Shown here piece by piece: positions 3,688 through 63,102 of a stretch of 64,000 nucleotides of DNA. The notes beneath the pieces are model-generated. The model was not told the origin of the DNA. It did no database searches and saw only the letters and a program-made list of their open reading frames with translations. The DNA is from Oscillospiraceae bacterium (GTDB taxonomy: Bacteria; Bacillota; Clostridia; Oscillospirales; CAG-272): assembly GCA_015063625.1 (NCBI GenBank), contig SVTT01000005.1, positions 44,979 to 108,978 on the forward strand, given 5' to 3'. Position 1 is the stretch's first letter. Each line of letters opens with the position of its first letter. The position numbers and the translations under genes are program-made.

Positions 3688-3855
3688 ACTTTTTCACTTT
3701 TCACTCTTCACTTTTCACTAAAACCTCTTGTCGTTTTTTGGCAAGTAATAAGTAATAAGAACCTGCTTCGCAGAACCTTGATACTCGCATTGCTCGTAAT
3801 ATGTGAATAGTGAAGAAGTAAGGCAGCTTTTCGCCAAGGCGAAAAGCATTTTTTT
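3688..3855. repeat. possible degenerate member of the word/hairpin 'zipper' element family
   Basis: Four head-to-tail (T/C)TTTCAC words occupy 3691-3718. The complementary GTGAA word occurs at 3803 and 3810. Between them are GTAATAA x2 and small hairpins (CTGC-TTC-GCAG). The segment ends in a strong terminator, GCTTTTCGCC-AA-GGCGAAAAGC plus a T-run (3826-3855). Confidence 0.35.
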
Positions 3856-14620: not shown

Positions 14621-14626
14621 GTGGCT

Positions 14627-14930
14627 CGCCCAATCAGCGGCGCGATGCGGCGTTGCGCCTCGACTCGCGGTGCTCGGCGTAGGTAACTACGCCGTCGCCC
14701 CCCTCGCTCGGTGCGCCTTGCCTCGCTTGCGTCTTGAACGAGCGGGGAAGCTTGTACTTCGCCCAATCAGCGGCGCGATGCGGCGTTGCGCCTCGACTCG
14801 CGGTGCTCGGCGTAGGTAACTACGCCGTCGCCCCCTCGCTCGGTGCGCCTTGCCTCGCTTGCGTCTTGAACGAGCGGGGAAGCTTGTACTTCGCCCAATC
14901 AGCGGCGCGATGCGGCGTTGCGCCTCGACT
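14627..14930. repeat. GC-rich tandem repeat, 132-133-bp unit x ~2.3
   Basis: CGCCCAATCAGCGGCGCGATGCGGCGTTGCGCCTCGACT starts at 14627, 14760 and 14892. The copies are near-identical apart from one C-run length difference. The array begins 6 nt after the ABC ATPase stop codon. Confidence 0.9.
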
Positions 14931-23050: not shown

Positions 23051-23235
23051 GAAAGTTCTCCCGAAAAAGCTTCGTTATATCAGTTTTTGCATTAAAATCA
23101 GTCCTTGTAATAAAGAAATAAAAGTGTTATAATATATATTGGATTTTTGGATTTTCGCTGCAAACACGGCAAAAATAGTATAGACAGAACGCACGGGGCA
23201 TCATACGGTGCGCCACGGTGCGTTTTTTGGAAAGG

Positions 23236-26200
23236 ATGGCAAAAATGCGGGAAAAGGATAAGCAGCGTGCTCGCGAAAAGGAGCGCGTGACCCGCCGCGG
23301 CGTGACTGCCGTTCCCGATCGCAGAGATCGGGAGCGCGTGCGCAACGCCTCTCGGCGTATGCATGAGTTTGACGACTATATGAATGACGCCCCCGAGGAC
23401 TCCCGTCGCAAGGAGCAGGAAAGGGGAGCTCCGCGCGAGGGACATGAGCCCGAGAGAGGATCCGGAGCTGAGGAAAAACGCCCTGCGCAGGGCGAGGTGC
23501 GTCGCGCCGAGGGTCGCCGTGAGAATGCCAAAAGGGTGCTGGAGCCCACCGCTGAAAAGGCACCCGTGAGTGAGGGGAATCCCGAGCGTTTTCTGCACCA
23601 GATCGTACCTTACGTGATGTTCTGGGTGGCGCTGTTTGCCGGTGTCAGCTTTTTGCTTCGCGATATTTTCAATATGGACGGCTCGGCAGGAGCCTTCGGC
23701 ACGTGGCTTGCCAACGTGCTTTGCGGTCTGCTCGGCGTCGCGGCATATCTTTTGCCTGCCATGCTTGTGGCGCTTTCACTGAAGTGGCGTCGCTTCGTCA
23801 AGGAGGGGCAGCTGGCAAAGCGTCTGATGCTTTCGTTTGCCTTCATGCTGCTGCTCTCCTCGATCATCCACGTGTTCACCGACCCCGATAACGTGCGCAA
23901 GGTCACCGCGCTCAGTGTGCTTTATGCAGGTGGTATCGCCGGAAGCGGCGGCGGTGTGCTCGGCGGCTTTTTCGGGGAATGGATCGGCTTTTTTCTGCGC
24001 AAGATCGGCACGGGACTCCTGATGATCCCACTGCTACTGATCGTGAGCATCTATCTGGTGGGACTGACACCCGAGGAGCTCTGGCAGCGTGCCGAGAGCA
24101 AATGGAGGATCATGAAGCAGCAGCGGCGCGAGAGCCGTTTGCAAAAGGAGGAGCGTGCGAGCGTCAAGCACGCCGAAAAGGAGGAAGAGCGCGCACTGCG
24201 CGAGCAGGAAAAGGAAGAAAAGCAGGAGCGTCGGGAGCAGGAAAAGAAGGAGGGGAAGGACTCCTCCGAATGGCGTGAGCCAAGACCTCTCAAGCGCTCG
24301 GGCGGAACCATGTATCGCTTCCGCGAGGATGAGCCCGACGTGGATGCCGAGCCGCCCCGACATAAGCCGCGTGAGGACCGTGACGAGGAGGTGGAGGCGC
24401 CCGAGGAGCCCCGTGAGGAGCGTACCGAACCTCGCCGCAGAAGTAACATCGATGCCGCCTTCGGTGGCGGTGTTGAGGATTACGGCAGGGATGAGCCGAT
24501 GACCGCACCCACGGGTAGCGGCAATGAGCTATTGGATATTCCCGATGACGAGCCCGAGATCACCGAGCCGAGCGAGGGTGCGAGGGCAATTTTAGACCAG
24601 GCGGGTCAGGGAGGCAACCCGGGCGACCGCATTGAAACCATTCTCAACGATATGTTTGCTACCCCGGCACCCACACCTTCGCCGCAGACGCCCAAGGAGG
24701 ACAACGCCAATTATTACGCGCCCTTTGCGCTACCTGTCCGTCCCGAGCCAAGACGCGATAAAGGGGATGCTGCAGCAGCCTCGCGTATTGTGATCACTCC
24801 CAAGGACCGGAGCGTGGCTCCTGCGGAGCCGACGGGCGAGCGCTACGGCACTGTGCCCCCCTCGGCTGTCGATGCGCCGCGTGGAGAGGAACGGCTGGGA
24901 AGCCCCGCTTCTCAGGGCGGCACCTATCAGCCCGCGGCTCGTCCCGCACCCCGTGATGAGTATGCATACGGGGAGAGAAAAAAGCCAAACGACCCTGCGG
25001 CGTACCGCTGGGATGTTCCCGCACGCCATGATGACACACCTGCGGCAGCCGAGCCGCGCTACGGCGTGACTCCTTCCACCGAGCAACCCTACCGTACGCC
25101 TGCGGCAGCCGAGCCGCGCTACGGCAGTGCCACTCCCACTGAGCAGCCCTACCGTACGCCTGCGGCAGCCGAGCCCTGCTATGGCAGTACCACTCCCACC
25201 GAGCAACCCTACCGTACGCCTGCGGCAGCCGAGCCGCGCTATGGCAGTACCACTCCCACCGAGCAGCCCTACCGTACGCCTGCGGCAGCCGAGCCGCGCT
25301 ACGGCGTGACTCCTTCCACCGAGCAGCCCTACCGTACACCTGCGGCAGCCGAGCCCCGCTATGGCGTGACTCCTCCCGCCGCAAGACCCGACGGAGATCA
25401 CACCTTCGGCTTTGCCGAGGATCCTCTTGACGGTGTTTCGGAGGTGTCGGATGTCACTGTCACGCGCGATGCACCGCAGCAACCCTACGACGACCCCGAT
25501 GTCGATACCTTCAGCGAGTTTCTTGGTGAGCTGGAGGATGACCTTGACGGGGAGGGCAACGTTTCCGAGATCGTCACACCCACGCCTGCCGTGCGTGCGA
25601 CCTACGAGCCTGTGCCTCCCCTGTCCGCGCAGACACCCTCGCGTACCGCGACCCCCTTTGCGCCGCGCGGCGAGGAGGAAGCACCTCGCTTCGCCGCTCC
25701 CACAGAGCAGCCCCGTCGCACCCCTGCGGAGGGCACGCCCCGTTATGAGAGACCTGTCCCCGCAGAGCCTGCGCGTGCCCCTGAGGCACCCCGTTACGGC
25801 ACTGCCGTTCCCGTTCTGTCCCGTACCGAGCCCGTAGAGGATAAGCCCCCCGTGCAGCCTCCTGTGATCGAGGAATATAAGTTCCCTCCGATCACTCTGC
25901 TCAACGAGGATAAAAACGAGAAGAACCGTGATTTCTATGAGGAGATCGAGGACACCAAGGAGGTTCTCCGCAGCACGCTTGCCAGCTTTAACATTCACAT
26001 TCAGGATGAGGTGGCATGCTCGCACGGACCTTCGATCACGCGCTATGAGCTTCGCCCCGTCGCGGGAACCAGCGTGCGCTCGGTAACCAACCGTATCGAC
26101 GATATCTCGCTGAATCTGGCAGCGTCGGTGCGTATCGAGGCGCCCATTCCGGGCAAGCCCGCGATCGGCATCGAGGTACCCAACAAGGTGCGGGAAACCG

Positions 26201-27396
26201 TTTATATGCGCACCATGCTGGAGTCCGAGACCTTCAAGCGATCAACCAAGCCCTTTGAGGTGCCTCTCGGTCTTGATGTCGGCGGCGGGGTACGCCTTTG
26301 CGACATCACCGCCATGCCCCACCTGCTGGTAGCGGGTACGACCGGCTCGGGTAAATCGGTTTGTATCAATTCGATCCTGGTCAGCCTGCTGTACAAGACC
26401 TCGCCCGAGGATCTGCGGCTGATCCTGATCGACCCGAAGCAGATCGAATTTGCGCCCTACGAGCATATTCCGCATCTGTATATGCCCATCGTCACCGATA
26501 TGCAGCGTGCCGCAGGCGCACTTGCCTGTGCGGTGCAGGAGATGGAGCGTCGCTTCTCGCTCATTAAGGATGTGGGTGTACGCGACATCAAGGCGTATAA
26601 CGAGGCGGTGAAGAATGACCCTGACCGTGAGCACCTGCCCCGCATCATCATCGTGATCGACGAGTTTGCCGATCTCAAGATGAGCTGCACCAATAACGAT
26701 CCCGAAAACTTTACCTGTCGTATCGCCCAGAAGGCACGTGCCGCAGGCATCCATCTGATCATCGGTACGCAGCGCCCCTCGGTGGACGTCATTACGGGTA
26801 AGCTGAAGACCAATATCGCATCCCGTATCGCGTTTATGGTCAAGCAGCAGGTCGATTCCCGTACCATTCTGGACGTCAACGGTGCAGAGTCGCTGACGGG
26901 TAAGGGTGATATGCTGTATATGCCTGCCAATTCGCAGGATAAGCAGCCCTGCCGCATTCAGGGCGCCTTCGTTTCGGACGGGGAGCTTGAGCGCGTGGTA
27001 TCCTACGTGCGCGACCATAATCCGCCCGTGCAGTATAACCGCGAGTTCATGAACCAGATCGAGATCGAGATGGCAAAGGCGGCAAATACGGGTCGTAAGA
27101 ACGGTGAGGACATTGAGGAGGAGGATGCCGATGGCAGCGAGGATCCGAAGTTCCTTGAGGCTGTCGAGCTGGCGGTCGAAACGCAGAAGATCGCGACCTC
27201 GCTTCTTCAGCGTCGCCTTGGTGTAGGCTACGGACGTGCCGCTAAGATCATTGACCGTATGGAGGATCTCGGGCTGGTCAGTGCCCCCGACGGCAATAAG
27301 GCGCGTAAGGTGCTTCCCGCCGCGCAAGGATATCTCAATCATATGGCGGCAGAGGGGGATGAGGGTGACGTCGACGATTTCGGCGATTATACCTGA
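23236..27396 (+). CDS. ftsK: DNA translocase FtsK/SpoIIIE with a very long low-complexity linker
   Basis: The N-terminus is charged, followed by 4 TM helices and a ~650-aa P/E/A/R-rich linker. The motor has Walker A GTTGSGKSV and Walker B IIIVIDEFADL, and the gamma wHTH is LLQRRLGVGYGRAAKIIDRMEDLG. The start is uncertain between ATG 23218, 23236 and 23245. Confidence 0.9.
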   Translation: MAKMREKDKQRAREKERVTRRGVTAVPDRRDRERVRNASRRMHEFDDYMNDAPEDSRRKEQERGAPREGHEPERGSGAEEKRPAQGEVRRAEGRRENAKRVLEPTAEKAPVSEGNPERFLHQIVPYVMFWVALFAGVSFLLRDIFNMDGSAGAFGTWLANVLCGLLGVAAYLLPAMLVALSLKWRRFVKEGQLAKRLMLSFAFMLLLSSIIHVFTDPDNVRKVTALSVLYAGGIAGSGGGVLGGFFGEWIGFFLRKIGTGLLMIPLLLIVSIYLVGLTPEELWQRAESKWRIMKQQRRESRLQKEERASVKHAEKEEERALREQEKEEKQERREQEKKEGKDSSEWREPRPLKRSGGTMYRFREDEPDVDAEPPRHKPREDRDEEVEAPEEPREERTEPRRRSNIDAAFGGGVEDYGRDEPMTAPTGSGNELLDIPDDEPEITEPSEGARAILDQAGQGGNPGDRIETILNDMFATPAPTPSPQTPKEDNANYYAPFALPVRPEPRRDKGDAAAASRIVITPKDRSVAPAEPTGERYGTVPPSAVDAPRGEERLGSPASQGGTYQPAARPAPRDEYAYGERKKPNDPAAYRWDVPARHDDTPAAAEPRYGVTPSTEQPYRTPAAAEPRYGSATPTEQPYRTPAAAEPCYGSTTPTEQPYRTPAAAEPRYGSTTPTEQPYRTPAAAEPRYGVTPSTEQPYRTPAAAEPRYGVTPPAARPDGDHTFGFAEDPLDGVSEVSDVTVTRDAPQQPYDDPDVDTFSEFLGELEDDLDGEGNVSEIVTPTPAVRATYEPVPPLSAQTPSRTATPFAPRGEEEAPRFAAPTEQPRRTPAEGTPRYERPVPAEPARAPEAPRYGTAVPVLSRTEPVEDKPPVQPPVIEEYKFPPITLLNEDKNEKNRDFYEEIEDTKEVLRSTLASFNIHIQDEVACSHGPSITRYELRPVAGTSVRSVTNRIDDISLNLAASVRIEAPIPGKPAIGIEVPNKVRETVYMRTMLESETFKRSTKPFEVPLGLDVGGGVRLCDITAMPHLLVAGTTGSGKSVCINSILVSLLYKTSPEDLRLILIDPKQIEFAPYEHIPHLYMPIVTDMQRAAGALACAVQEMERRFSLIKDVGVRDIKAYNEAVKNDPDREHLPRIIIVIDEFADLKMSCTNNDPENFTCRIAQKARAAGIHLIIGTQRPSVDVITGKLKTNIASRIAFMVKQQVDSRTILDVNGAESLTGKGDMLYMPANSQDKQPCRIQGAFVSDGELERVVSYVRDHNPPVQYNREFMNQIEIEMAKAANTGRKNGEDIEEEDADGSEDPKFLEAVELAVETQKIATSLLQRRLGVGYGRAAKIIDRMEDLGLVSAPDGNKARKVLPAAQGYLNHMAAEGDEGDVDDFGDYT
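25036..25380 (+). repeat. in-frame 60-bp tandem repeat (x ~5.7) inside ftsK
   Basis: The unit is ACNCCTGCGGCAGCCGAGCCNNGCTAYGGC...GAGCARCCCTACCGT, encoding TPAAAEPRYG(V/S)(T/A)(P/T)(S/P)TEQPYR. Copies start at 25036, 25096, 25156, 25216, 25276 and 25336. Confidence 0.9.
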
Positions 27397-27416: not shown

Positions 27417-27817
27417 AAAAAAGCACTTGTGGCATAGCGTGATGTCCTTAACGGACAAATCACGCTAACTAAGTTTGCCCTTGCGGGCAAGTGAAGTTTA
27501 CTTCGTAAGTGAAGTTATCCTGCGGATAGTGAAGTTTTGCCTTCGGCAAAGTGGGCAAACTTAACTTCACTGCGAGCTTTGGTGAGCAACTTCACTGTGT
27601 ATCACACAACTTCACTTTTGCGGCAGCAAAAACTTCACTGACAGAAAAAGAGCAAACATACAAGATTTTTGTCTTGCGTGTTTGCTCTTTCTGTTTGTGA
27701 TATGGGTTTGGGCTTAGCCCATAGAGTATTTGACTAGTCAAATGCGATGCTCGCACTTAGCGGTATTTTTCAATTTCTCCGCTAAGGACATCGCCCAATA
27801 GCCGCAAGTGCTTTTTT
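27417..27817. repeat. ~39-bp imperfect inverted repeat (split terminator stem) bracketing a ~325-bp hairpin-rich segment
   Basis: The left arm is AAAAAAGCACTTGTGGCATAGCGTGATGTCCTTAACGG (27417-27454). The right arm is CCGCTAAGGACATCGCCCAATAGCCGCAAGTGCTTTTTT (27779-27817). The outer 17 bp differ at one base and match the stem of the intact terminator at 4435-4466. Confidence 0.7.
27437..27694 (+). repeat. zipper element, copy A (word GTGAAGTT / AACTTCAC)
   Basis: GTGAAGTT occurs at 27491, 27509 and 27529. AACTTCAC occurs at 27563, 27588, 27608 and 27631. Every spacer is self-complementary. The central hairpin is TTTGCC-TTCG-GGCAAA. Capping hairpins lie at 27437-27465 and 27641-27694. Confidence 0.75.
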
Positions 27818-27884
27818 CAGGTCACAGGGTCACCCGCAGTCCCCCTGTATAAAAAAGGAAAAAAGTGTCTATTCTCATTTTTGA

Positions 27885-27928
27885 GGGGCGCGAAAGATCC
27901 CCCGAGAGCGCGATGCTCTCGGGGGATC
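27885..27928 (-). terminator. terminator hairpin after RNase P RNA
   Basis: Minus strand reads GATCCCCCGAGAGC-ATCGC-GCTCTCGGGGGATC followed by TTTCG. The 14-bp stem is perfect but the T-run is weak. Confidence 0.55.
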
Positions 27929-28285
27929 TGAACCTTGCCGATAAGCCGGGTTCTGTCGTGAACGGCCATCTATCTGCGCCCTGCGTCGCCGCAGGGCTTC
28001 GGGATCGCTCCCGTGCCACCCGGGGGAATACGTCGGGCAAACATCCCCCATACGGTGTTGCTTCGGATAGGGTTTACAGCAAACCTATGTTACCATAGGA
28101 GTGGGTGAGCTCTTACCTCGCCTTTCCATCCTTACCCCTCTCTGAAAGGGGCGGTTTATTTCTGTTGCACTTTCCCGGCAGTCGCCTGCGGCTGACGTTA
28201 TCAGCTATCCTGCCCTTTGAAGCCCGGACTTTCCTCACGGTAATACCTTTCGGCAACATACCGCGCGGCCGTTTGGTAAGGTTAC
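27929..28285 (-). ncRNA. rnpB: RNase P RNA, bacterial type A
   Basis: The minus strand contains GAGGAAAGTCCGGGC, AGTGCAACAGAAATAAACCGCC, GGTAAGGATGGAAAGGCGAGGTAAGAGCTCACC and AGATAGATGGCCGTTCACGACAGAACCCGGCTTATCGG. P1 pairs AACCTTACC with GGCAAGGTT. A TATAAT lies at 28292-28297 (minus). Ends are approximate. Confidence 0.93.
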
Positions 28286-32567: not shown

Positions 32568-32663
32568 AAAGGACCTCCTTTGGCTGTAAAGCTTATCAGC
32601 TTGATTTCCTCTTGTCTATTATTATAGCGAGAGGCGGCGAATTTGTCAATGAAAAAGCACCCC

Positions 32664-32955
32664 TTGGGCGACCTACGGTAAAGCAGGTCGCCCAACTAAG
32701 TTTGCCCATTCGGGCAAGTGAAGTTTACTGCGTAAGTGAAGTTATCCTGCGGATAGTGAAGTTTTGCCTTCGGCAAAGTGGGCAAACTTAACTTCACTTG
32801 TGCGAAGCACAAACATCACTGCAAAGCAACTTCACTTTCACGTTAGTGAAAACTTCACCTATTACCTCCCGAAAAACGCAAATGTAACACACCATACTTG
32901 CAGAGCAAGAAGTGTGAAAAGGAGTACAGGCAAAATGCCCGTACTCCTTTTTGTT
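32664..32955 (+). repeat. zipper element, copy B
   Basis: GTGAAGTT occurs at 32718, 32736 and 32756. AACTTCAC occurs at 32790, 32828 and 32851, and AACATCAC at 32812. The left ~100 nt are almost identical to copy A. The capping hairpins are TTGGGCGACCT..AGGTCGCCCAA (32664-32695) and AAAAGGAGTAC..GTACTCCTTTT (32917-32951). Confidence 0.75.
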
Positions 32956-41699: not shown

Positions 41700-41810
41700 A
41701 ACCGCATAGAAATCGGGGGTGCTGCCAAACAGGGCGGCTGAGATGGGCAATGCCCAAACCCTTAAACCTGATACGGATAATGCCGGCGTAGGGAAGAGAT
41801 CGAGTATTCT
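41700..41810 (+). ncRNA. TPP (THI-box) riboswitch aptamer
   Basis: CGGGGGTGCTGCC...GGCGGCTGAGA...AACCCTTAAACCTGATACGGATAATGCCGGCGTAGGGAAG matches the THI element consensus (GGGGTGC / CTGAGA / ACCCTTTGAACCTGATCTGGATAATGCCAGCGTAGGGAA). Confidence 0.9.
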
Positions 41811-41846
41811 GTTACCGCACGGAGATTTTCGTGCGGTAATTTTATA
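41811..41846 (+). terminator. riboswitch expression-platform terminator
   Basis: TTACCGCACG-GAGATTTT-CGTGCGGTAA followed by TTTTAT, 18 nt before the thiT RBS. Confidence 0.7.
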
Positions 41847-42691: not shown

Positions 42692-42764
42692 TTCTTTCAT
42701 CGTCCTCTCTTGTCCCTGGCAAAGTGCAAGCATCGCATTTGACCCAACAAATGCAAATGGGCTA

Positions 42765-43217
42765 GGCAAGAGGGAGTGATCTGAACCCGCCCAAAAGCCC
42801 TGATTCCGATAGGGGGCGGCGCCTTCGACGACCCGTTTTTCGGCACCCTCGCGGCACGTTCGGATACGATCAAACCGGTAGGGGTCGGCGCCTTCGACGA
42901 CCCGTCTTTCGGCGCCCTCGGCGACTCATTCTTGGTTGCCGTTCGTTTGTAACGGGCTGCCGTGGGCGTTAGCCCCTACCATGTATGATATCACCCGAGC
43001 TTCGAGGGAACAGATTTTTGCGGCAGCATGGGCGGACATCTGCCACCAAAATCATCTTAAAATCAAGGCTTTGAGGGTCATCCGAGTTTTGAGAGAGCAA
43101 ATGTTTGCAGACGCAAGGGAAATTCTTGCAGTCATATGCGGATATGACAAGGGAATTCCCCGATGCGGATGCGGATATCTGCCTCTCAAAACCGAGTTCA
43201 GATCACTCCCTCTTGCC
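42765..43217. mobile_element. MITE copy 1 (453 bp) with 17-bp terminal inverted repeats, flanked by TA
   Basis: The TIRs are GGCAAGAGGGAGTGATC (42765-42781) and GATCACTCCCTCTTGCC (43201-43217), a perfect pair. TA lies at 42763-42764 and 43218-43219. There is no ORF of its own. Confidence 0.7.
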
Positions 43218-43219
43218 TA

Positions 43220-43493
43220 GGCAAGAGGGAGTGATCCAAACCCGCCCAAAAGCCCTGATTTTCAGCGCTTTCGGCGGCAAGTGCGCTTGTAAAGTCCGCA
43301 CTTGACTTCGCGCCCTTGCCACCAAAATCATCTTAAAATCAAGGCTTTGAGGGTCATTCGAGTTTTGAGAGAGCAAATATTTGCAGACGCAAGGGAAATT
43401 CTTGCAGTCATATACGGATATGACAAGGGAATTCCCCGATGCGGATGCGGATATCTGCCTCTCAAAACCGAGTTCAGATCGCTCCCTCTTGTC
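43220..43493. mobile_element. MITE copy 2 (274 bp), same family, abutting copy 1
   Basis: The TIRs are GGCAAGAGGGAGTGATC (43220-43236) and GATCGCTCCCTCTTGTC (43477-43493). TA flanks lie at 43218-43219 and 43494-43495. The 176-bp core 43318-43493 matches 43042-43217 with 5 substitutions. Confidence 0.7.
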
Positions 43494-43539
43494 TAAATTC
43501 CCTAAAGCTCTGCTTCACTTCGGGGATCCCTACGCAAGC

Positions 43540-43796
43540 ACAGAGAGCAGACACGCAAGACGCTTCGTCTTGCGTGTCTGCTCTTCTGTTAGTGATGTTT
43601 TTGCTATCGCAAAAGTGATGTTATTCGCTTCGCTCATCATGATGTTGCTCGCCAAGGCTCGCAGTGATGTGATGTTTGCCCACTGTGCCGAAGGCACAAC
43701 ATCATTCACGCAGTGAACATCACAAGGCGAAGCCGACATCACTTGCCCATAAGGGCAAACATCGTTTCGCGTGATACTCCGTTAAGAGTATCACGC
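43540..43796 (-). repeat. zipper element, copy D (word GTGATGTT / AACATCAC)
   Basis: Hairpin B is ACAGAGAGCAGACACGCAAGAC-GCTT-CGTCTTGCGTGTCTGCTCTTCTGT (43540-43589). GTGATGTT-type words lie at 43592, 43615, 43639 and 43664. AACATCA(C/T) lies at 43698, 43716 and 43735. Hairpin A is GCGTGATACTC..GAGTATCACGC (43769-43796). Confidence 0.75.
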
Positions 43797-43895
43797 TGTG
43801 CCGTCGGGTCTTTTTATGCTTTTCCCGATCGCTTTTTCTTGACAGAGCGCACAATTTGTGATATCATAATATGAGTTATAAGAAAGGCTGATGCT

Positions 43896-60192: not shown

Positions 60193-61427
60193 AAAAAACC
60201 GTGACCGTATGCCTGCTTCTTGCGTTGCTTCTGATGCTCATCCCCCAGCTTGCATCCTGCAAAAAAGGGGGAGTCACCACCCTTTACGTTTATAACTGGG
60301 GAGAGTATATCTCGGATGGCTCGGAGGGCACAATGGATGTCAATGCCGCCTTTGAGGAATGGTATTTCGACACCTATGGCGAGCGCGTCGAGGTCAATTA
60401 TTCCACCTATTCCTCCAATGAGGATATGTATGCCAAGCTGAGCAGCGGTGCGTCGGAGTACGACATCGTCATTCCGTCCGATTACATGATCGCCCGTATG
60501 ATCGAGGAGGAGCTATTAAGACCGCTTGATTTCTCCAACATCCCCAATTCGGTATATATCGACCTTGAGGCGATGTTTGGCGCCGAGGCGCCCTATTACG
60601 ATCCCACGCAGTCCTATTCGGTTCCGTACACCTACGGCACCATCGGCATCATTTATAATAAGACCATGGTGGACGAGGCGGATCTCGGCTCTTGGGATAT
60701 CATGTGGAACGAGAAGTATACGGGCAACATTCTGCAATTCAACAACTCGCGTGACGCCTTTGCCACCGCACTGTTCAAGCTTGGCTACAGTGTCAATACT
60801 GACAGCGAGGCGGAGTGGCAGGAGGCGCTGGCGCTGCTCAAGTCGCAAAAGCCCATTGTGCAGGGCTACGTCATGGATGAGATCTTCAATAAGATGGAGA
60901 ACGGCTCTGCCGCCATCGCGCCCTATTATGCGGGAGATTTCTTCACCATGTACGGGGATAATGAGGATCTCGGCTTCTTCTATCCAAGCGAGGGGACCAA
61001 CGTGTTTGTGGATGCCATGTGCATTCCCACCACCAGTAAGAACCCCGAGATCGCAGAGCGTTATATCAACTTCATGCTTTCAAAGGAGGCGGCGATCGCC
61101 AATGCGGAGTATATGTGCTACGCCTCTCCGAACCGACTTGTCACCGAGGATGCCGACTACCGCGCCGCGATGGAGGAGCTTCATCCCGACGCGATGGAGA
61201 TCCTTTACGGCACAGGAGAGATGAGGCTGGAGTTCTATGAAAATCTGCCCGAGCAGAAGCTGATGATGCTCAGTCATCTTTGGGAGGACCTGAAGATCGA
61301 AAGCCCCATCAATACCTCCATCATCGTGATGGCAGGCGTGATCGCAGGAGGGCTGTGCACTGCCTTCGTGTTCTTTGCGATACGCCGCTATCGCCGAAAA
61401 AAGCTGCTTGTAAGGCTGTGGCAATAA
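60189..61427 (+). CDS. potD: spermidine/putrescine-binding lipoprotein with an extra C-terminal TM helix
   Basis: ATG at 60189 (codon 31 of the track ORF). The lipobox is QLASC. The PotD-like core has LYVYNWGEYI and DIVIPSDYMI. The C-terminal hydrophobic segment is IIVMAGVIAGGLCTAFVFFAI, followed by RRYRRKK. Confidence 0.85.
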   Translation: MKKTVTVCLLLALLLMLIPQLASCKKGGVTTLYVYNWGEYISDGSEGTMDVNAAFEEWYFDTYGERVEVNYSTYSSNEDMYAKLSSGASEYDIVIPSDYMIARMIEEELLRPLDFSNIPNSVYIDLEAMFGAEAPYYDPTQSYSVPYTYGTIGIIYNKTMVDEADLGSWDIMWNEKYTGNILQFNNSRDAFATALFKLGYSVNTDSEAEWQEALALLKSQKPIVQGYVMDEIFNKMENGSAAIAPYYAGDFFTMYGDNEDLGFFYPSEGTNVFVDAMCIPTTSKNPEIAERYINFMLSKEAAIANAEYMCYASPNRLVTEDADYRAAMEELHPDAMEILYGTGEMRLEFYENLPEQKLMMLSHLWEDLKIESPINTSIIVMAGVIAGGLCTAFVFFAIRRYRRKKLLVRLWQ

Positions 61428-61473
61428 AAACGACCCCGTTCGGGCAAAGGATCAGCCCGAACGGGGTCTTTTC
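61426..61473 (+). terminator. intrinsic terminator after potD
   Basis: GACCCCGTTCGGGC-AAAGGATCA-GCCCGAACGGGGTC followed by TTTTC. Confidence 0.7.
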
Positions 61474-61501
61474 ATAAAGCAGGTTTTACAACCGCAAAAA
61501 C

Positions 61502-61794
61502 AAAAGGAGTACGAACATTTGTTTGTACTCTTTTTCACACGCCTTGCCTGCAAGGTATAGTGTGTTACATTATACTTTTGTTTTTTGGGTGGTAAAAGGT
61601 GAAGTTTTCGCTATCGCGAAAGTGAAGTTGCTATGCAGTGAAGTTTGTGCTGCGCACAAGTGAAGTTAAGTTTGCCCACTTTGCCGAAGGCAAAACTTCA
61701 CTATCCGCAGGATAACTTCACTTACGCAGTAAACTTCACTTGCCCCTTGGGGCAAACTTAGTTGGGGCACCTGCAATATCGCAGGTGTCCCAAC
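61502..61794 (-). repeat. zipper element, copy C (inverted orientation)
   Basis: On the plus strand, GTGAAGTT occurs at 61599, 61622, 61638 and 61660, and AACTTCAC at 61694, 61714 and 61732. Its reverse complement aligns with copy B at roughly 85-90% by eye. The capping hairpins lie at 61502-61535 and 61761-61794. Confidence 0.75.
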
Positions 61795-61803
61795 GGGGTT
61801 CCT

Positions 61804-62361
61804 TCATTTCAAAAACTGCCTGGCAAAAAGAGAGGCGGTCAGAACGGTCAGCGCAAGATTTTGACCGAAGCGCAGAAGCATGCAGGAGGATAGGGCGAAC
61901 AGGAGGAGCAGCGTGAGGTAGGTGGTCACGGAAAGGATCTCTTCAGCGACCGTGATCCCAAAGAGGCGCGCCAGCAGGCAGTAAAGGATGCGTCCTCCGT
62001 CAAAGCCGGCAATGGGTGCACTGTTAAACAGTGCAAATGAGAGCGTGGCGGTGAGGACAAGACGGGCAAAGGGGAACGCATGGGGCAGTAGAAGCAGCCC
62101 GAGCAGGAGGGAAAAGGCGGGGCCTGCCGCCGCCAGCAGCAGCTCTGCACGGTAGGATGGGATCTGGGCGGCGGGATAGATCCTTGCGCCAAAGAGATCC
62201 AATTCAATGGAGCGTAGGCGGATCGAGAGCAGCCTTGCCGCCAGTAGATGACCGCACTCATGGAATAGGGCGGCAAGCGTTGCGGCAAGGAAGAGCTGCT
62301 TTTGCGTGATCGCCATGACAGCGTAAAATAAAACGGTTTCGGGAGAAATTCTGATCTTCAT
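61804..62361 (-). CDS. M50-family (site-2 protease type) membrane metalloprotease, short form
   Basis: ATG at 62361 inside track ORF 61804..62703, giving 185 aa. The HExxH motif is within ALFHECGHLLAA. The second motif, NSAPIAGFDGG, is the NxxPxxxxDG type. It has 5 TM. The rest of the track ORF is antisense to tRNA-Leu. Confidence 0.75.
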   Translation of the reverse strand: MKIRISPETVLFYAVMAITQKQLFLAATLAALFHECGHLLAARLLSIRLRSIELDLFGARIYPAAQIPSYRAELLLAAAGPAFSLLLGLLLLPHAFPFARLVLTATLSFALFNSAPIAGFDGGRILYCLLARLFGITVAEEILSVTTYLTLLLLFALSSCMLLRFGQNLALTVLTASLFARQFLK

Positions 62362-62570: not shown

Positions 62571-62655
62571 GCGAGAGTGGCGGAACTGGCAGACGCGCAC
62601 GTTTGAGGGGCGTGTGATTTCCATCGTACGGGTTCAAGTCCCGTCTCTCGCACCA
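62571..62655 (+). tRNA. tRNA-Leu (anticodon GAG), class II with long variable arm, CCA encoded
   Basis: Acceptor GCGAGAG pairs with CTCTCGC. The anticodon stem is CACGT/GCGTG with loop TT-GAG-GG. The variable arm is TGATTTCCATCGTAC and the T-arm is ACGGG-TTCAAGT-CCCGT. Length 85 nt. Confidence 0.92.
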
Positions 62656-63102
62656 ACAAAGAAAAGGGCACCCAATTGGGTGTCCTTTTCTTTGTTGGTA
62701 CAAGGGCTCGCGGATGCGAGCCCTTGCCGCCTTCGCTTGCCTTCCTTCTTATACCGTACGAAACGGCGGCAGAGAAGAACGCCGATTATTGCAGGGCAAA
62801 ATGGCGGCGTTACCGCCAAGGCGTTCTTCAGACGTGCAGGGCAAAGCCCTGCTAAGTGGTTCAACGTCCCGTCTCTCGCACCAACAAAGAAAAGGGCACC
62901 CGATCGGGTGCCCTTTTCTTTGTTGGTACAAGGGCTCGCGGATGCGAGCCCTTGCCGCCTTCGCTTGCCTTCCTTCTTATACCGTACGAAACGGCGGCAG
63001 AGAAGAACGCCGTTTTTTGCTTGCAAAATGATAGCGTTCAGCCGTCAAGGCGTTCTTCAGACGTGCAGGGCAAAGCCCTGCTAAGTGGTTCAACGTCCCG
63101 TC
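62631..63102 (+). repeat. tandem duplication (227-229-bp unit x 2 plus 16 nt) that begins inside the tRNA-Leu T-arm
   Basis: GGTTCAA(C)GTCCCGTC occurs at 62631, 62858 and 63087. The following TCTCTCGCACCAACAAAGAAAAGGGCACCC... is repeated at 62646 and 62874. The two units are near-identical except for one internal ~35-nt segment. Confidence 0.9.

Follow-up and report, generated by a model that had tools for sequence, protein, structure and literature searches.

The window analysed here is a stretch of 64,000 nt on contig SVTT01000005.1 (assembly GCA_015063625.1) of an Oscillospiraceae bacterium. Between its convergent genes potD and M50, the latter encoding a site-2-protease-like protein, lies a hairpin-rich block that an earlier note, made from the sequence of the window, had termed copy C and placed at 61502-61794. 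Copy C belongs to an Rfam family already described, Gut-1 (RF01706). The features of the locus are listed below from left to right. The strand matching the Rfam model was defined as the sense strand; hp stands for hairpin, L for a forward word and R for a reverse word.

61425-61427, + strand: stop codon TAA of potD (ABC-transporter substrate-binding protein); the C-terminus ...LWQ* and the TAA are also present in relative L140
61432-61468, no strand assigned: bidirectional terminator hairpin next to potD; 14-bp perfect stem GACCCCGTTCGGGC/GCCCGAACGGGGTC, 9-nt loop
61455-61475, no strand assigned: direct repeat copy 1, GCCCGAACGGGGTCTTTTCAT; 16/21 identical to 61787-61807; ACCCCGTTGGG/ACCCCGTTCGG
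61474-61499, - strand: tail at the element's right end (...GCGGTTGTAAAACCTGCTTTAT on -); inverted copy of the ATAAAGCAGGT of hp0, inner terminal inverted repeat
61502-61535, no strand assigned: element-internal terminator hairpin, homologous in copies B and E
61534-61561, + strand: promoter-like boxes TTCACA-16-TATAGT pointing into the core; position conserved in copy B, L085, L071 and L037
61599-61763, - strand: core of the element; nhmmer E=6e-45 on -, 4.6e-15 on +
61599-61606, - strand: R4
61622-61629, - strand: R3, then hp7
61638-61645, - strand: R2, then hp6
61660-61667, - strand: R1, then hp5
61668-61677, - strand: central box GGGCAAACTT
61680-61693, - strand: hp4
61694-61701, - strand: L3, then hp4
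61714-61721, - strand: L2, then hp3
61732-61739, - strand: L1, then hp2
61740-61763, - strand: half-word box AACTAAGTTTGCCC and hp1
61690-61764, - strand: match to RF01706 Gut-1 RNA, 50.4 bits, 75 nt, box and hp1 to hp3 only
61762-61793, no strand assigned: hp0, a 13-bp hairpin directly 5' of the box on the - strand; -25.5 kcal/mol (+), -20.9 kcal/mol (-)
61787-61807, no strand assigned: direct repeat copy 2, GTCCCAACGGGGTTCCTTCAT; the stop codon of M50 (61804-61806) lies inside it
61804-62361, - strand: M50-family (site-2-protease-like) gene, 185 aa, HExxH motif; PF02163, 1.8e-12

The element is strung on an 8-nt word. Counted together with its reverse complement on both strands, GTGAAGTT occurs 20 times in the window versus 1.48 +/- 1.11 times in shuffles, none of 100 shuffles reaching 20, and all 20 occurrences are confined to three clusters. 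Copy C carries four of these words on the + strand (61599, 61622, 61638 and 61660) and three on the - strand (61694, 61714 and 61732), in exact agreement with the count of 4 + 3 given before. The assignment of copies B and C to one subfamily on opposite strands was likewise confirmed, with 87 % complementarity over 239 nt (32660-32898 versus 61559-61797), and the central 105 nt of copy C are 95-97 % identical to copy A. As had been claimed, position 61502 lies 29 nt past 61473, and 61794 lies 10 nt before the stop codon at 61804-61806. The limits of the copy, however, had been drawn too narrowly, as the homology with B and E overruns both of them. On the left it extends to 61474-61484 (ATAAAGCAGGT), on the right via hp0 into the segment holding the M50 stop codon. 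Hp0 itself is present in every copy, with a sequence that differs among copies.

The stacking of terminator-like hairpins in both directions was borne out by the folding energies on both strands. The potD-proximal hairpin (-31.3 kcal/mol on +, -34.6 kcal/mol on -, z about -8) combines a GC-rich stem with a U tract on either strand (tails CUUUUC and GUUUUUAU), as expected of a bidirectional intrinsic terminator. For the element-internal hairpin at 61502-61535 we obtained -17.4 kcal/mol on + (z -4.7, two G.U pairs) and -12.4 kcal/mol on - (z -1.7), that is, a good terminator on + and a weak one on -. At 61787-61799, inside direct repeat copy 2, a small hairpin is followed by a U-rich tail when read on +. 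The block as a whole reaches -132 to -142 kcal/mol over 330 nt, with z about -9 to -10 on both strands. In the alignment, one arm of the potD terminator is similar to the outer terminal repeat of B and E; because it resembles the element's own terminal repeat, this terminator is possibly not independent of the element. Either B and E descend from a copy carrying flanking sequence from the potD-M50 locus, or the potD hairpin is itself derived from the element.

Against the full RF01706 model (1-77; gathering score 50 bits), matches were obtained for copy A (27466-27540, +, 55.7 bits), copy B (32693-32767, +, 53.3 bits) and copy C, the last one borderline above the gathering score; a further copy, D, was not reported at this threshold. 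Three hairpins separated by conserved GUGAAxU linkers and supported by covariation, the hallmarks of the family, were found in our alignment, where hp1 to hp3 show double compensatory changes (e.g., AU15/UA12/GC9 in columns 33:42). The block described in the earlier note is real; its identity as Gut-1 and the fourth copy in the window had been overlooked. Gut-1 was described with 43 members, all of them from human-gut metagenomes (Weinberg et al. 2010, Genome Biol 11:R31; PMC2864571). Based on covariation it was graded as certainly RNA, it was considered not cis-regulatory, no function was assigned, and the 77-nt motif was filed as an sRNA gene (Rfam type 'Gene; sRNA'). The published members carry the words GUGAUAUU/AAUAUCAC and the boxes UAUAUUCGCC/GGCGAAUAUA, and in the raw alignments of the supplement (PMC2864571) the reverse-word half is present in some of them.

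Published motif and present copies share the three small hairpins with GUGAA(A/G)U linkers between them and the origin from uncultured gut bacteria. They differ in the word, GUGAAAU versus GTGAAGTT or GTGATGTT, and in extent: the 77-nt model comprises the first three hairpins of a far larger conserved unit, the left third of a pseudo-palindromic core of about 165 nt within units of 330-370 nt that have inverted ends. Nothing on 'Gut-1 RNA' beyond the 2010 paper was found in the searched literature, and the word strings matched only primers. Compared to that paper and the searched literature, the extended pseudo-palindromic architecture, the two-strand constraint and the concerted word switching are new, as are the inverted ends, the insertion into terminator loops and the taxonomic placement.

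Copies, core anatomy and distribution

At least five copies are present in about 67 kb of this species, four in the window and a fifth, E, just beyond its right edge. The units are non-coding, and no conserved open reading frame (ORF) was found in them. Besides copy C the following features were assigned:

27434-27802, + strand: copy A, an A-type composite of hp0, core (27467-27638), terminator hairpin and module X; located after ftsK and facing rnpB
27418-27433 / 27803-27820: split host terminator around copy A, which is nested in its loop
32648-33013, + strand: copy B, belonging to the B/C/E type, with its core at 32694-32858 and terminal inverted repeats that are imperfect and span about 40 nt; flanked by ppdK and an unknown gene
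43536-43800, - strand: copy D; core 43592-43765, E=2e-24, A-type hp0 and terminator; flanked by thiT and a MiaB/RimO-like gene
L130 1125-1500, same species, shortly past the right edge of the window: copy E, which shares about 99 % identity with B; flanked by a ksgA-like (RrnaAD) gene and a DUF6612 gene, as seen in L130

Copy D was missed by the word count because its word differs. All its words are GTGATGT(T)/AACATCAC (GTGATGTT/AACATCAC), with GATGTTTGCCC as 5' box and GGGCAAACATC as central box. One plan is common to at least 40 parsed copies from the window and from dozens of metagenome-assembled genomes (MAGs) of Clostridia, among the matches listed; many of them may be mutual orthologues, and the counts do not represent independent events. 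Hp0 is followed by the half-word box and hp1 (AAC-TAAGTTTGCCC-loop-GGGCAA), by the left half in the order L1, hp2, L2, hp3, L3, hp4 (L being GTGAAGTT), by the central box (AGTG-GGGCAAACTT) and by the right half in the order R1, hp5, R2, hp6, R3, hp7, R4 (R being AACTTCAC); a terminator hairpin usually comes next after R4. The asymmetry of three versus four words is conserved in the parsed copies, with a word spacing of 16 to 34 bp. The 5' box is complementary to both the 3' arm of hp1 and the central box, and at loci L032 and L099 box, hp1 arm and central box are all changed together (TAAGTTCGCC / GGCGA / GGGCGAACTT). Between subfamilies, and even inside one genome, the two boxes change together with the forward and the reverse word, and word hybrids were found in copy B at R2 and in L033, L057 and L040 at R4. 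Such word switching fits intramolecular pairing of L with R words combined with word homogenisation, and it fits a word-reading factor as well. At a few loci (L089 2638-3178, L067 and L101) half-arrays stand in reverse, divergent order or about 375 nt apart; these could be rearranged or composite elements.

Elements were found in gut MAGs of Clostridia, of human as well as animal origin (Oscillospiraceae, Acutalibacteraceae, Christensenellaceae, 'Scatosoma' and others) and in two intergenic gaps of a prophage structural module. A viral scan returned mostly unrelated one-orientation arrays, with true elements only in L173, and when metagenomes were scanned with the central 42 nt of the variant present in this genome, one match only was obtained. 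Counts of co-oriented upstream ORFs (27/33) and of convergent downstream ORFs (25/35) were considered as signs of a strand preference. This was rejected: either orientation gives such counts within a convergent pair, and they therefore show only a preference for convergent gaps. The box side was nearer to a stop codon in about 14/18 convergent cases, a weaker signal of polarity. Many copies begin 0-90 nt past a stop codon or overlap it.

At four loci (L032, L036 at 497-1050, L069 and L099) an rlmD/TrmA-type methyltransferase gene precedes the element. There, the 3' arm of hp0 complements the last codons, which are lineage-specific, and an AACTAAG box contains the stop codon. Ribosome-binding site and start of a 23S_rRNA_IVP (four-helix-bundle) gene (PF05635, 5.9e-25) are located within about 20 nt of R4, followed by a T5orf172/HTH gene. 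The claim that the copies always lie outside coding sequence has to be softened, as the 5' hairpin overlaps the last codons at these rlmD-type loci and the M50 stop codon lies inside the duplicated end segment of copy C. For copy A, a conserved rnpB-linked locus was considered and rejected: its right flank recurs twice in one MAG (L114 and L116) and therefore belongs to the repeat.

Fold, strand symmetry and expression signals

Covariation was measured on a 37-sequence alignment of the core, with 97.7 % of the alignment cells paired. Double compensatory changes were found in 15/43 pairs, versus 7.2 +/- 1.4 in shuffles (0/500 reaching 15) and 2-6 in slid controls, and all 15 covarying pairs lie within local hairpins. 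The word helices proposed by RNAalifold (L1:R4, L2:R3 and L3:R1) are invariant, and the alignment is therefore neutral on word-to-word pairing. The mean minimum free energy was -64 kcal/mol, compared to -34 kcal/mol with the words blocked, so that zippering about doubles the stability; two zipper registers, one word apart, were about equally frequent. According to these models, the forward words are predicted to zip onto the reverse words.

Both strands of the core are constrained. With each distinct hairpin counted once, the stems contain 817 Watson-Crick, 8 G.U and 3 A.C pairs, a share of G.U pairs far below the expectation for a one-strand RNA. An attempt to pick the folding strand from G.U versus A.C counts was dropped, as there are too few of either. 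Loops in the left half follow the pattern U..C in 113/160 cases (UUC, UGC, UAC, UGAC, UUGC), those in the right half G..A or A..A in 75/120 (GUA, AUA, GAUA, GAA), and the left UNC and right GNA classes are mutual reverse complements. Because the stems are purely Watson-Crick but for these few pairs and the loop classes mirror each other, both strands fold alike: on each, GTGAAGTT words accompanied by UNC-loop hairpins precede AACTTCAC words accompanied by GNA-loop hairpins. In line with this, A, B and C match one nhmmer profile on both strands (E about 1e-44 sense, 1e-13 to 1e-15 antisense). A role of copy C as a bidirectional insulator, one of the two readings put forward in the earlier note, is no more than compatible with the strand-symmetric design.

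The promoter and terminator signals are ambiguous and in part placed opposite to the Rfam match. They bear on the first alternative, in which the element is a strand-specific gene for a trans-acting small RNA (sRNA), its 8-nt words are sites titrating a protein or RNA, and its copies are paralogous sRNA genes. For the B/C/E type, this RNA of about 235 nt would be made from the strand opposite to the Rfam match, in copy C from about 61568 to about 61805 (+). Promoter-like boxes are indeed conserved just past the internal terminator of B (TTCACA-16-TATGGT), C, L085, L071 and L037. The internal terminator is stronger on this strand (-17.4 versus -12.4 kcal/mol), using G.U pairs; B and C carry a far-end hairpin with a U tract on it, and in copy B it is co-directional with both neighbouring genes. 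Moreover, the left half is near-identical among copies of one genome while the right-half hairpins diverge, the seven words per element are kept identical as expected of a motif that is read, and the grade given by Weinberg et al. (PMC2864571) also favours an RNA. Nevertheless, the A-type copies (A and D) have no such promoter between terminator and core, pairing with the reverse words would make the forward words inaccessible, and both the scarcity of G.U pairs and the mirrored loop classes are unexpected in a one-strand RNA. The start of many copies at or shortly past a stop codon does not fit either, and terminator-loop insertion and inverted ends, described below, are features of mobile elements. 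Overall we regard an sRNA gene as unlikely.

On its Rfam strand, copy C is a potential 3' tail of the M50 mRNA, beginning 10 nt past the stop codon and ending at the hairpin 61535-61502 with the tail UUUUGUUUUU. On the other, non-Rfam strand (61590-61625 +, 32858-32885 -), sequences resembling a Shine-Dalgarno site (GGGAGG/GGGTGG) were noticed 7-8 nt before the first GTG word. The tiny ORFs there (MKFSLT* and MKFSLSRK*) are conserved only in their word-encoded part and are probably not translated. Several resemblances of the words were rejected: chained GUG/UGA mini-ORFs (spacings out of frame, peptides not conserved), a parS half-site (GTGAAAC; wrong geometry), a 3+4 array of Tn7/Mu-like transposase sites (constant part only 8 bp, spacing variable), and a K-turn or C/D box seen in GUGAUG (the words pair perfectly).

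A second alternative acts at the level of DNA. Folded single-stranded DNA, or a cruciform extruded with two-fold symmetry, would be the substrate of a sequence-specific enzyme reading word plus hairpin, for example an HUH/Y1 enzyme like RAYT (REP-associated tyrosine transposase, where REP stands for repetitive extragenic palindrome). Alternatively, the array would be bound by a topology or nucleoid protein where convergent genes end. Transcription would be incidental. The strand reading AACTTCAC bears C-GNA-G / GC-GNA-GC loops on each half. Mini-hairpins of the type d(GCGNAGC) are exceptionally stable in DNA, and the corresponding loops are not special in RNA; we take the GNA loops as a lead towards a DNA-level role. 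Stems restricted to Watson-Crick pairs, the mixed orientation to transcription, a concerted word switching as in REP/RAYT co-evolution and the single-stranded hairpin loops as targets point in the same direction, as do the A-type left junctions, four of four of which read (A/T)TAG before CG(T/C)G. Against this stand the lack of a Y1/HUH gene or recurrent neighbour at the examined loci and the presence of two word types plus hybrids together in one genome. The word spacing of 16 to 34 bp speaks against cooperative binding to double-stranded DNA, and the terminators with U tracts and the promoter-like boxes of one subtype make sense only for RNA. This second alternative is rather improbable in our view.

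Gain at the potD-M50 locus and apparent mobility

The 376-nt gap between potD and M50 is an insertion, not an ancestral regulatory region. Every contig of the same species, i.e., with identical PotD/M50 proteins (at least 8 samples), has the same 376-nt gap with an identical element. When the region was compared in relatives, as the earlier note had proposed, the closest ones sharing the convergent potD-M50 synteny both differed: L138 (PotD 80 % identical) showed a 48-nt gap with one bidirectional terminator and no element, and L140 (PotD 76 %) an unrelated 279-nt filler. The block is thus not carried by all relatives, and a presence/absence polymorphism exists at the orthologous site, between genera or species only. 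In copy C, the 16/21 direct repeat brackets 311 nt. Deletion in silico of the insert and one repeat left a 44-nt gap that folds as a single terminator. Direct repeat copy 1 includes a TCA matching the M50 stop codon. A truncation of M50 by the element was rejected, as the stop codon lies within the duplicated segment and the M50 C-terminus therefore need not have changed. In L138 a single ACTTCAC 7-mer (3754-3760) is found directly 5' of the empty-site terminator hairpin; it could be chance or a relic.

Insertion into terminators was also visible at other loci. The A-type copies A, L114, L116 (the last two from one MAG) and L057 each lie inside a different, locus-specific inverted repeat of 13-21 nt, compared to at most 13 nt in shuffles. 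Rejoined, these host repeats form terminators with A-run, stem and T-run (-23 to -28.5 kcal/mol, z -6.8 to -9.6), and the A-type insert therefore sits in a terminator loop. The A-type elements end in terminal inverted repeats (GCGTGATGTCCTTAACGGA versus the reverse complement GGGCGATGTCCTTAGCGGA, 16/19). Those of B and E, about 40 nt long and imperfect, resemble the two arms of a terminator, and copy C has an inner terminal repeat of 11-13 nt (ATAAAGCAGGT). Along about 340 nt, B and E match almost perfectly, and their flanks are unrelated. The proposal of a mobile element with a preference for inter-terminator space is thus supported by the empty site, the flanking repeat, the split terminators, the presence of B and E at unrelated loci and the inverted ends. 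Small size, absence of coding sequence, multiple copies and terminal inverted repeats correspond to a miniature inverted-repeat transposable element (MITE). A related autonomous element encoding a transposase was not found in the window and about 220 loci, where the bracketed genes were inspected, though not exhaustively. Likewise, no RAYT (Y1 HUH) gene was seen between the paired elements in L036, L173 and L130.

A third alternative, a vertically inherited, cis-acting structure in the 3' untranslated region or terminator of M50 that never moved and was lost in the relatives devoid of it, appears very improbable. The position 10 nt past the M50 stop codon with the Rfam strand co-oriented and the fixation in all same-species contigs would agree with it, and at the rlmD locus hp0 covaries with the lineage-specific codons, indicating a long vertical maintenance there. 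But the same block (87-99 % identical) occurs at unrelated loci beside ppdK, ksgA and ftsK, direct repeats surround copy C, split terminators surround other copies, and two relatives of the same synteny do not have the element.

We therefore favour, as somewhat probable, that copy C is an extended Gut-1: a strand-symmetric array of hairpins, dispersed and apparently mobile, that inserts into terminator hairpins. Since at least five copies exist in the species and copy C was gained beside a terminator, it is a dispersed element and not a regulator specific to this locus. The unit would consist of seven or eight mini-hairpins strung on identical 8-nt words, three forward and then four reverse, with a half-word box at the 5' side. 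A single strand, either one alike, would fold into a rod, with local hairpins forming first and forward words then zipping onto reverse words. Spreading would resemble that of MITE, REPIN or BOX elements, using terminal inverted repeats and targeting the hairpins of intrinsic terminators or sites beside them, for the most part in the gaps of convergent gene pairs. At the present locus, the element would have been gained beside the single bidirectional terminator that once separated potD from M50, turning a 44-48-nt junction into a 376-nt block and supplying a second terminator hairpin. With this second terminator and the folded block in place, the M50 transcript (-), potD read-through and any element-promoted + transcript would therefore meet a very stable structure. 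The element may still be mobile. By analogy to REP, BOX and Correia elements, the host might benefit through backup termination, protection of 3' ends or insulation of convergent genes.

Several observations weigh against this interpretation. Regarding the fold, no compensation between forward and reverse words was found within the family, where single word mismatches stay uncompensated; the argument for L:R pairing therefore comes from between-subfamily switching and energy alone, and a sequence-reading factor in place of pairing explains the same word data. The depletion of G.U pairs could in part result from the need for stability in stems of 3-6 bp. Orientation to neighbouring transcription is mixed, with A, C and E sense to the upstream gene and B and D antisense to co-directional neighbours, and promoter and terminator signals occur opposite to the Rfam strand. 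Regarding mobility, copy C is fixed in all same-species contigs and hence no recent movement is documented, and the empty site sits in a relative only 80 % identical in PotD. A clean target-site duplication was not found: the candidates are the imperfect 21-nt repeat of copy C (16/21), 15 nt at L071 and 16 nt at L086, and the A-type junctions show TA/TTA/ATAGC-like bases only. No transposase or dedicated enzyme was seen beside any copy in the loci inspected as described above. Finally, hairpin covariation and conservation across genera exceed what a decaying selfish MITE would show.

Going further, the Gut-1 core might represent a new strand-symmetric 'zipper' module of 8-nt words and mini-hairpins with two registers, recognised by an HUH/RAYT-like enzyme or an RNA-binding protein. 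The word variants AAG, ATG, ATA and AAA would then be co-evolving specificity groups, and the orphan 'sRNA' family would really be a multi-unit, REPIN-like mobile element targeting terminators. We offer this extended version as a doubtful, speculative idea.

Other features of the window and known systems

Further repeats accompany the A-type copies. Between the terminator of copy D and its module X, about 740 nt of nested repeats (42719-43500) contain a 276-nt tandem duplication (43041-43219 / 43317-43495, 97 %) and CTAGGCAAGAGGGAGTGATC in direct and inverted copies at 42762, 43200 and 43217; a second repeat family seems to have entered the first one here. Module X of the A-type composite (27723-27800, 42719-42752) holds a perfect 14-bp palindrome, TTTGACTAGTCAAA, followed by TGCGATGCTCGCACTT. 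The palindrome recurs inverted at 42732-42751 and also in L057, L114, L116 and L120, and judged by its sequence it looks like a putative operator. To the right of M50, tRNA-Leu(GAG) (62571-62655) is followed by 229-nt tandem repeats that start with the tRNA 3' end and terminator (region 62571-63102; 62638-62792 / 62866-63020, 97 %). The DUF6612-M50 gap measures 959 nt in L128 and 731 nt in L130, hence the tandem repeat number varies between samples. These tRNA-linked repeats may be att-like remnants of a tRNA-integrating element. A 132-nt tandem repeat with 2.3 copies, 99 % identity and many GC hairpin-like segments is located at 14626-14930. A 60-nt repeat with 5.7 copies (25039-25381) lies inside the ftsK/spoIIIE ORF (23218-27396), where it presumably encodes a repetitive protein linker. 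RNase P RNA (class A, 245 bits; 27926-28284, -) is convergent to copy A, and a thiamine pyrophosphate (TPP) riboswitch (41705-41812, +) is found upstream of the thiT-like gene preceding copy D.

Since 2010 Gut-1 had been an orphan motif, 'certainly RNA' without organism, context or function. It is now placed in genomes of Ruminococcaceae, Oscillospiraceae, Acutalibacteraceae and Christensenellaceae and in a prophage. If the favoured interpretation is confirmed, the Rfam family needs to be redefined, and annotators should expect that RNA motifs supported by covariation may prove to be structured mobile DNA. Gut Clostridia would gain a tractable system of the REPIN/BOX kind, with selfish hairpins that coexist with or supply the terminators between convergent genes.

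Among known systems, the REP/REPIN-RAYT elements of Enterobacteria and Pseudomonas share with the present element short conserved tags beside palindromes, in inverted sets that fold, here by prediction, into a long hairpin. Like it, they are extragenic, often at 3' ends between convergent genes, occur in many copies and persist for a long time with a conserved structure. A REPIN, however, consists of two near-identical REPs, in contrast to seven units (3+4) with variable hairpins and a constant 8-nt word; the inverted word arrays found here may be counted as analogous, zippering being favoured by about 30 kcal/mol, but they comprise seven units with variable palindromes. Terminal inverted repeats and terminator-loop insertion set the present element further apart, and no RAYT gene was identified. 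BOX elements of Streptococcus pneumoniae and Correia/NEMIS elements of Neisseria are likewise modular, intergenic, non-coding repeats of transcribed regions that form stable rods, with a variable number of internal modules, inverted ends and possible promoter or terminator activity. Their sequences and hosts are unrelated, both lack anything like the array of identical 8-nt words and its mirrored loop classes, and Correia elements, unlike the present one, show clear TA duplications and a site for integration host factor (IHF). Bidirectional intrinsic terminators, finally, resemble the outer repeats of B and E, as well as the two hairpins 61432-61468 and 61502-61535, in A-run, GC stem and T-run, and the element occupies typical terminator positions. 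In contrast to them, its core has no U tracts after the hairpins and is ten times larger.

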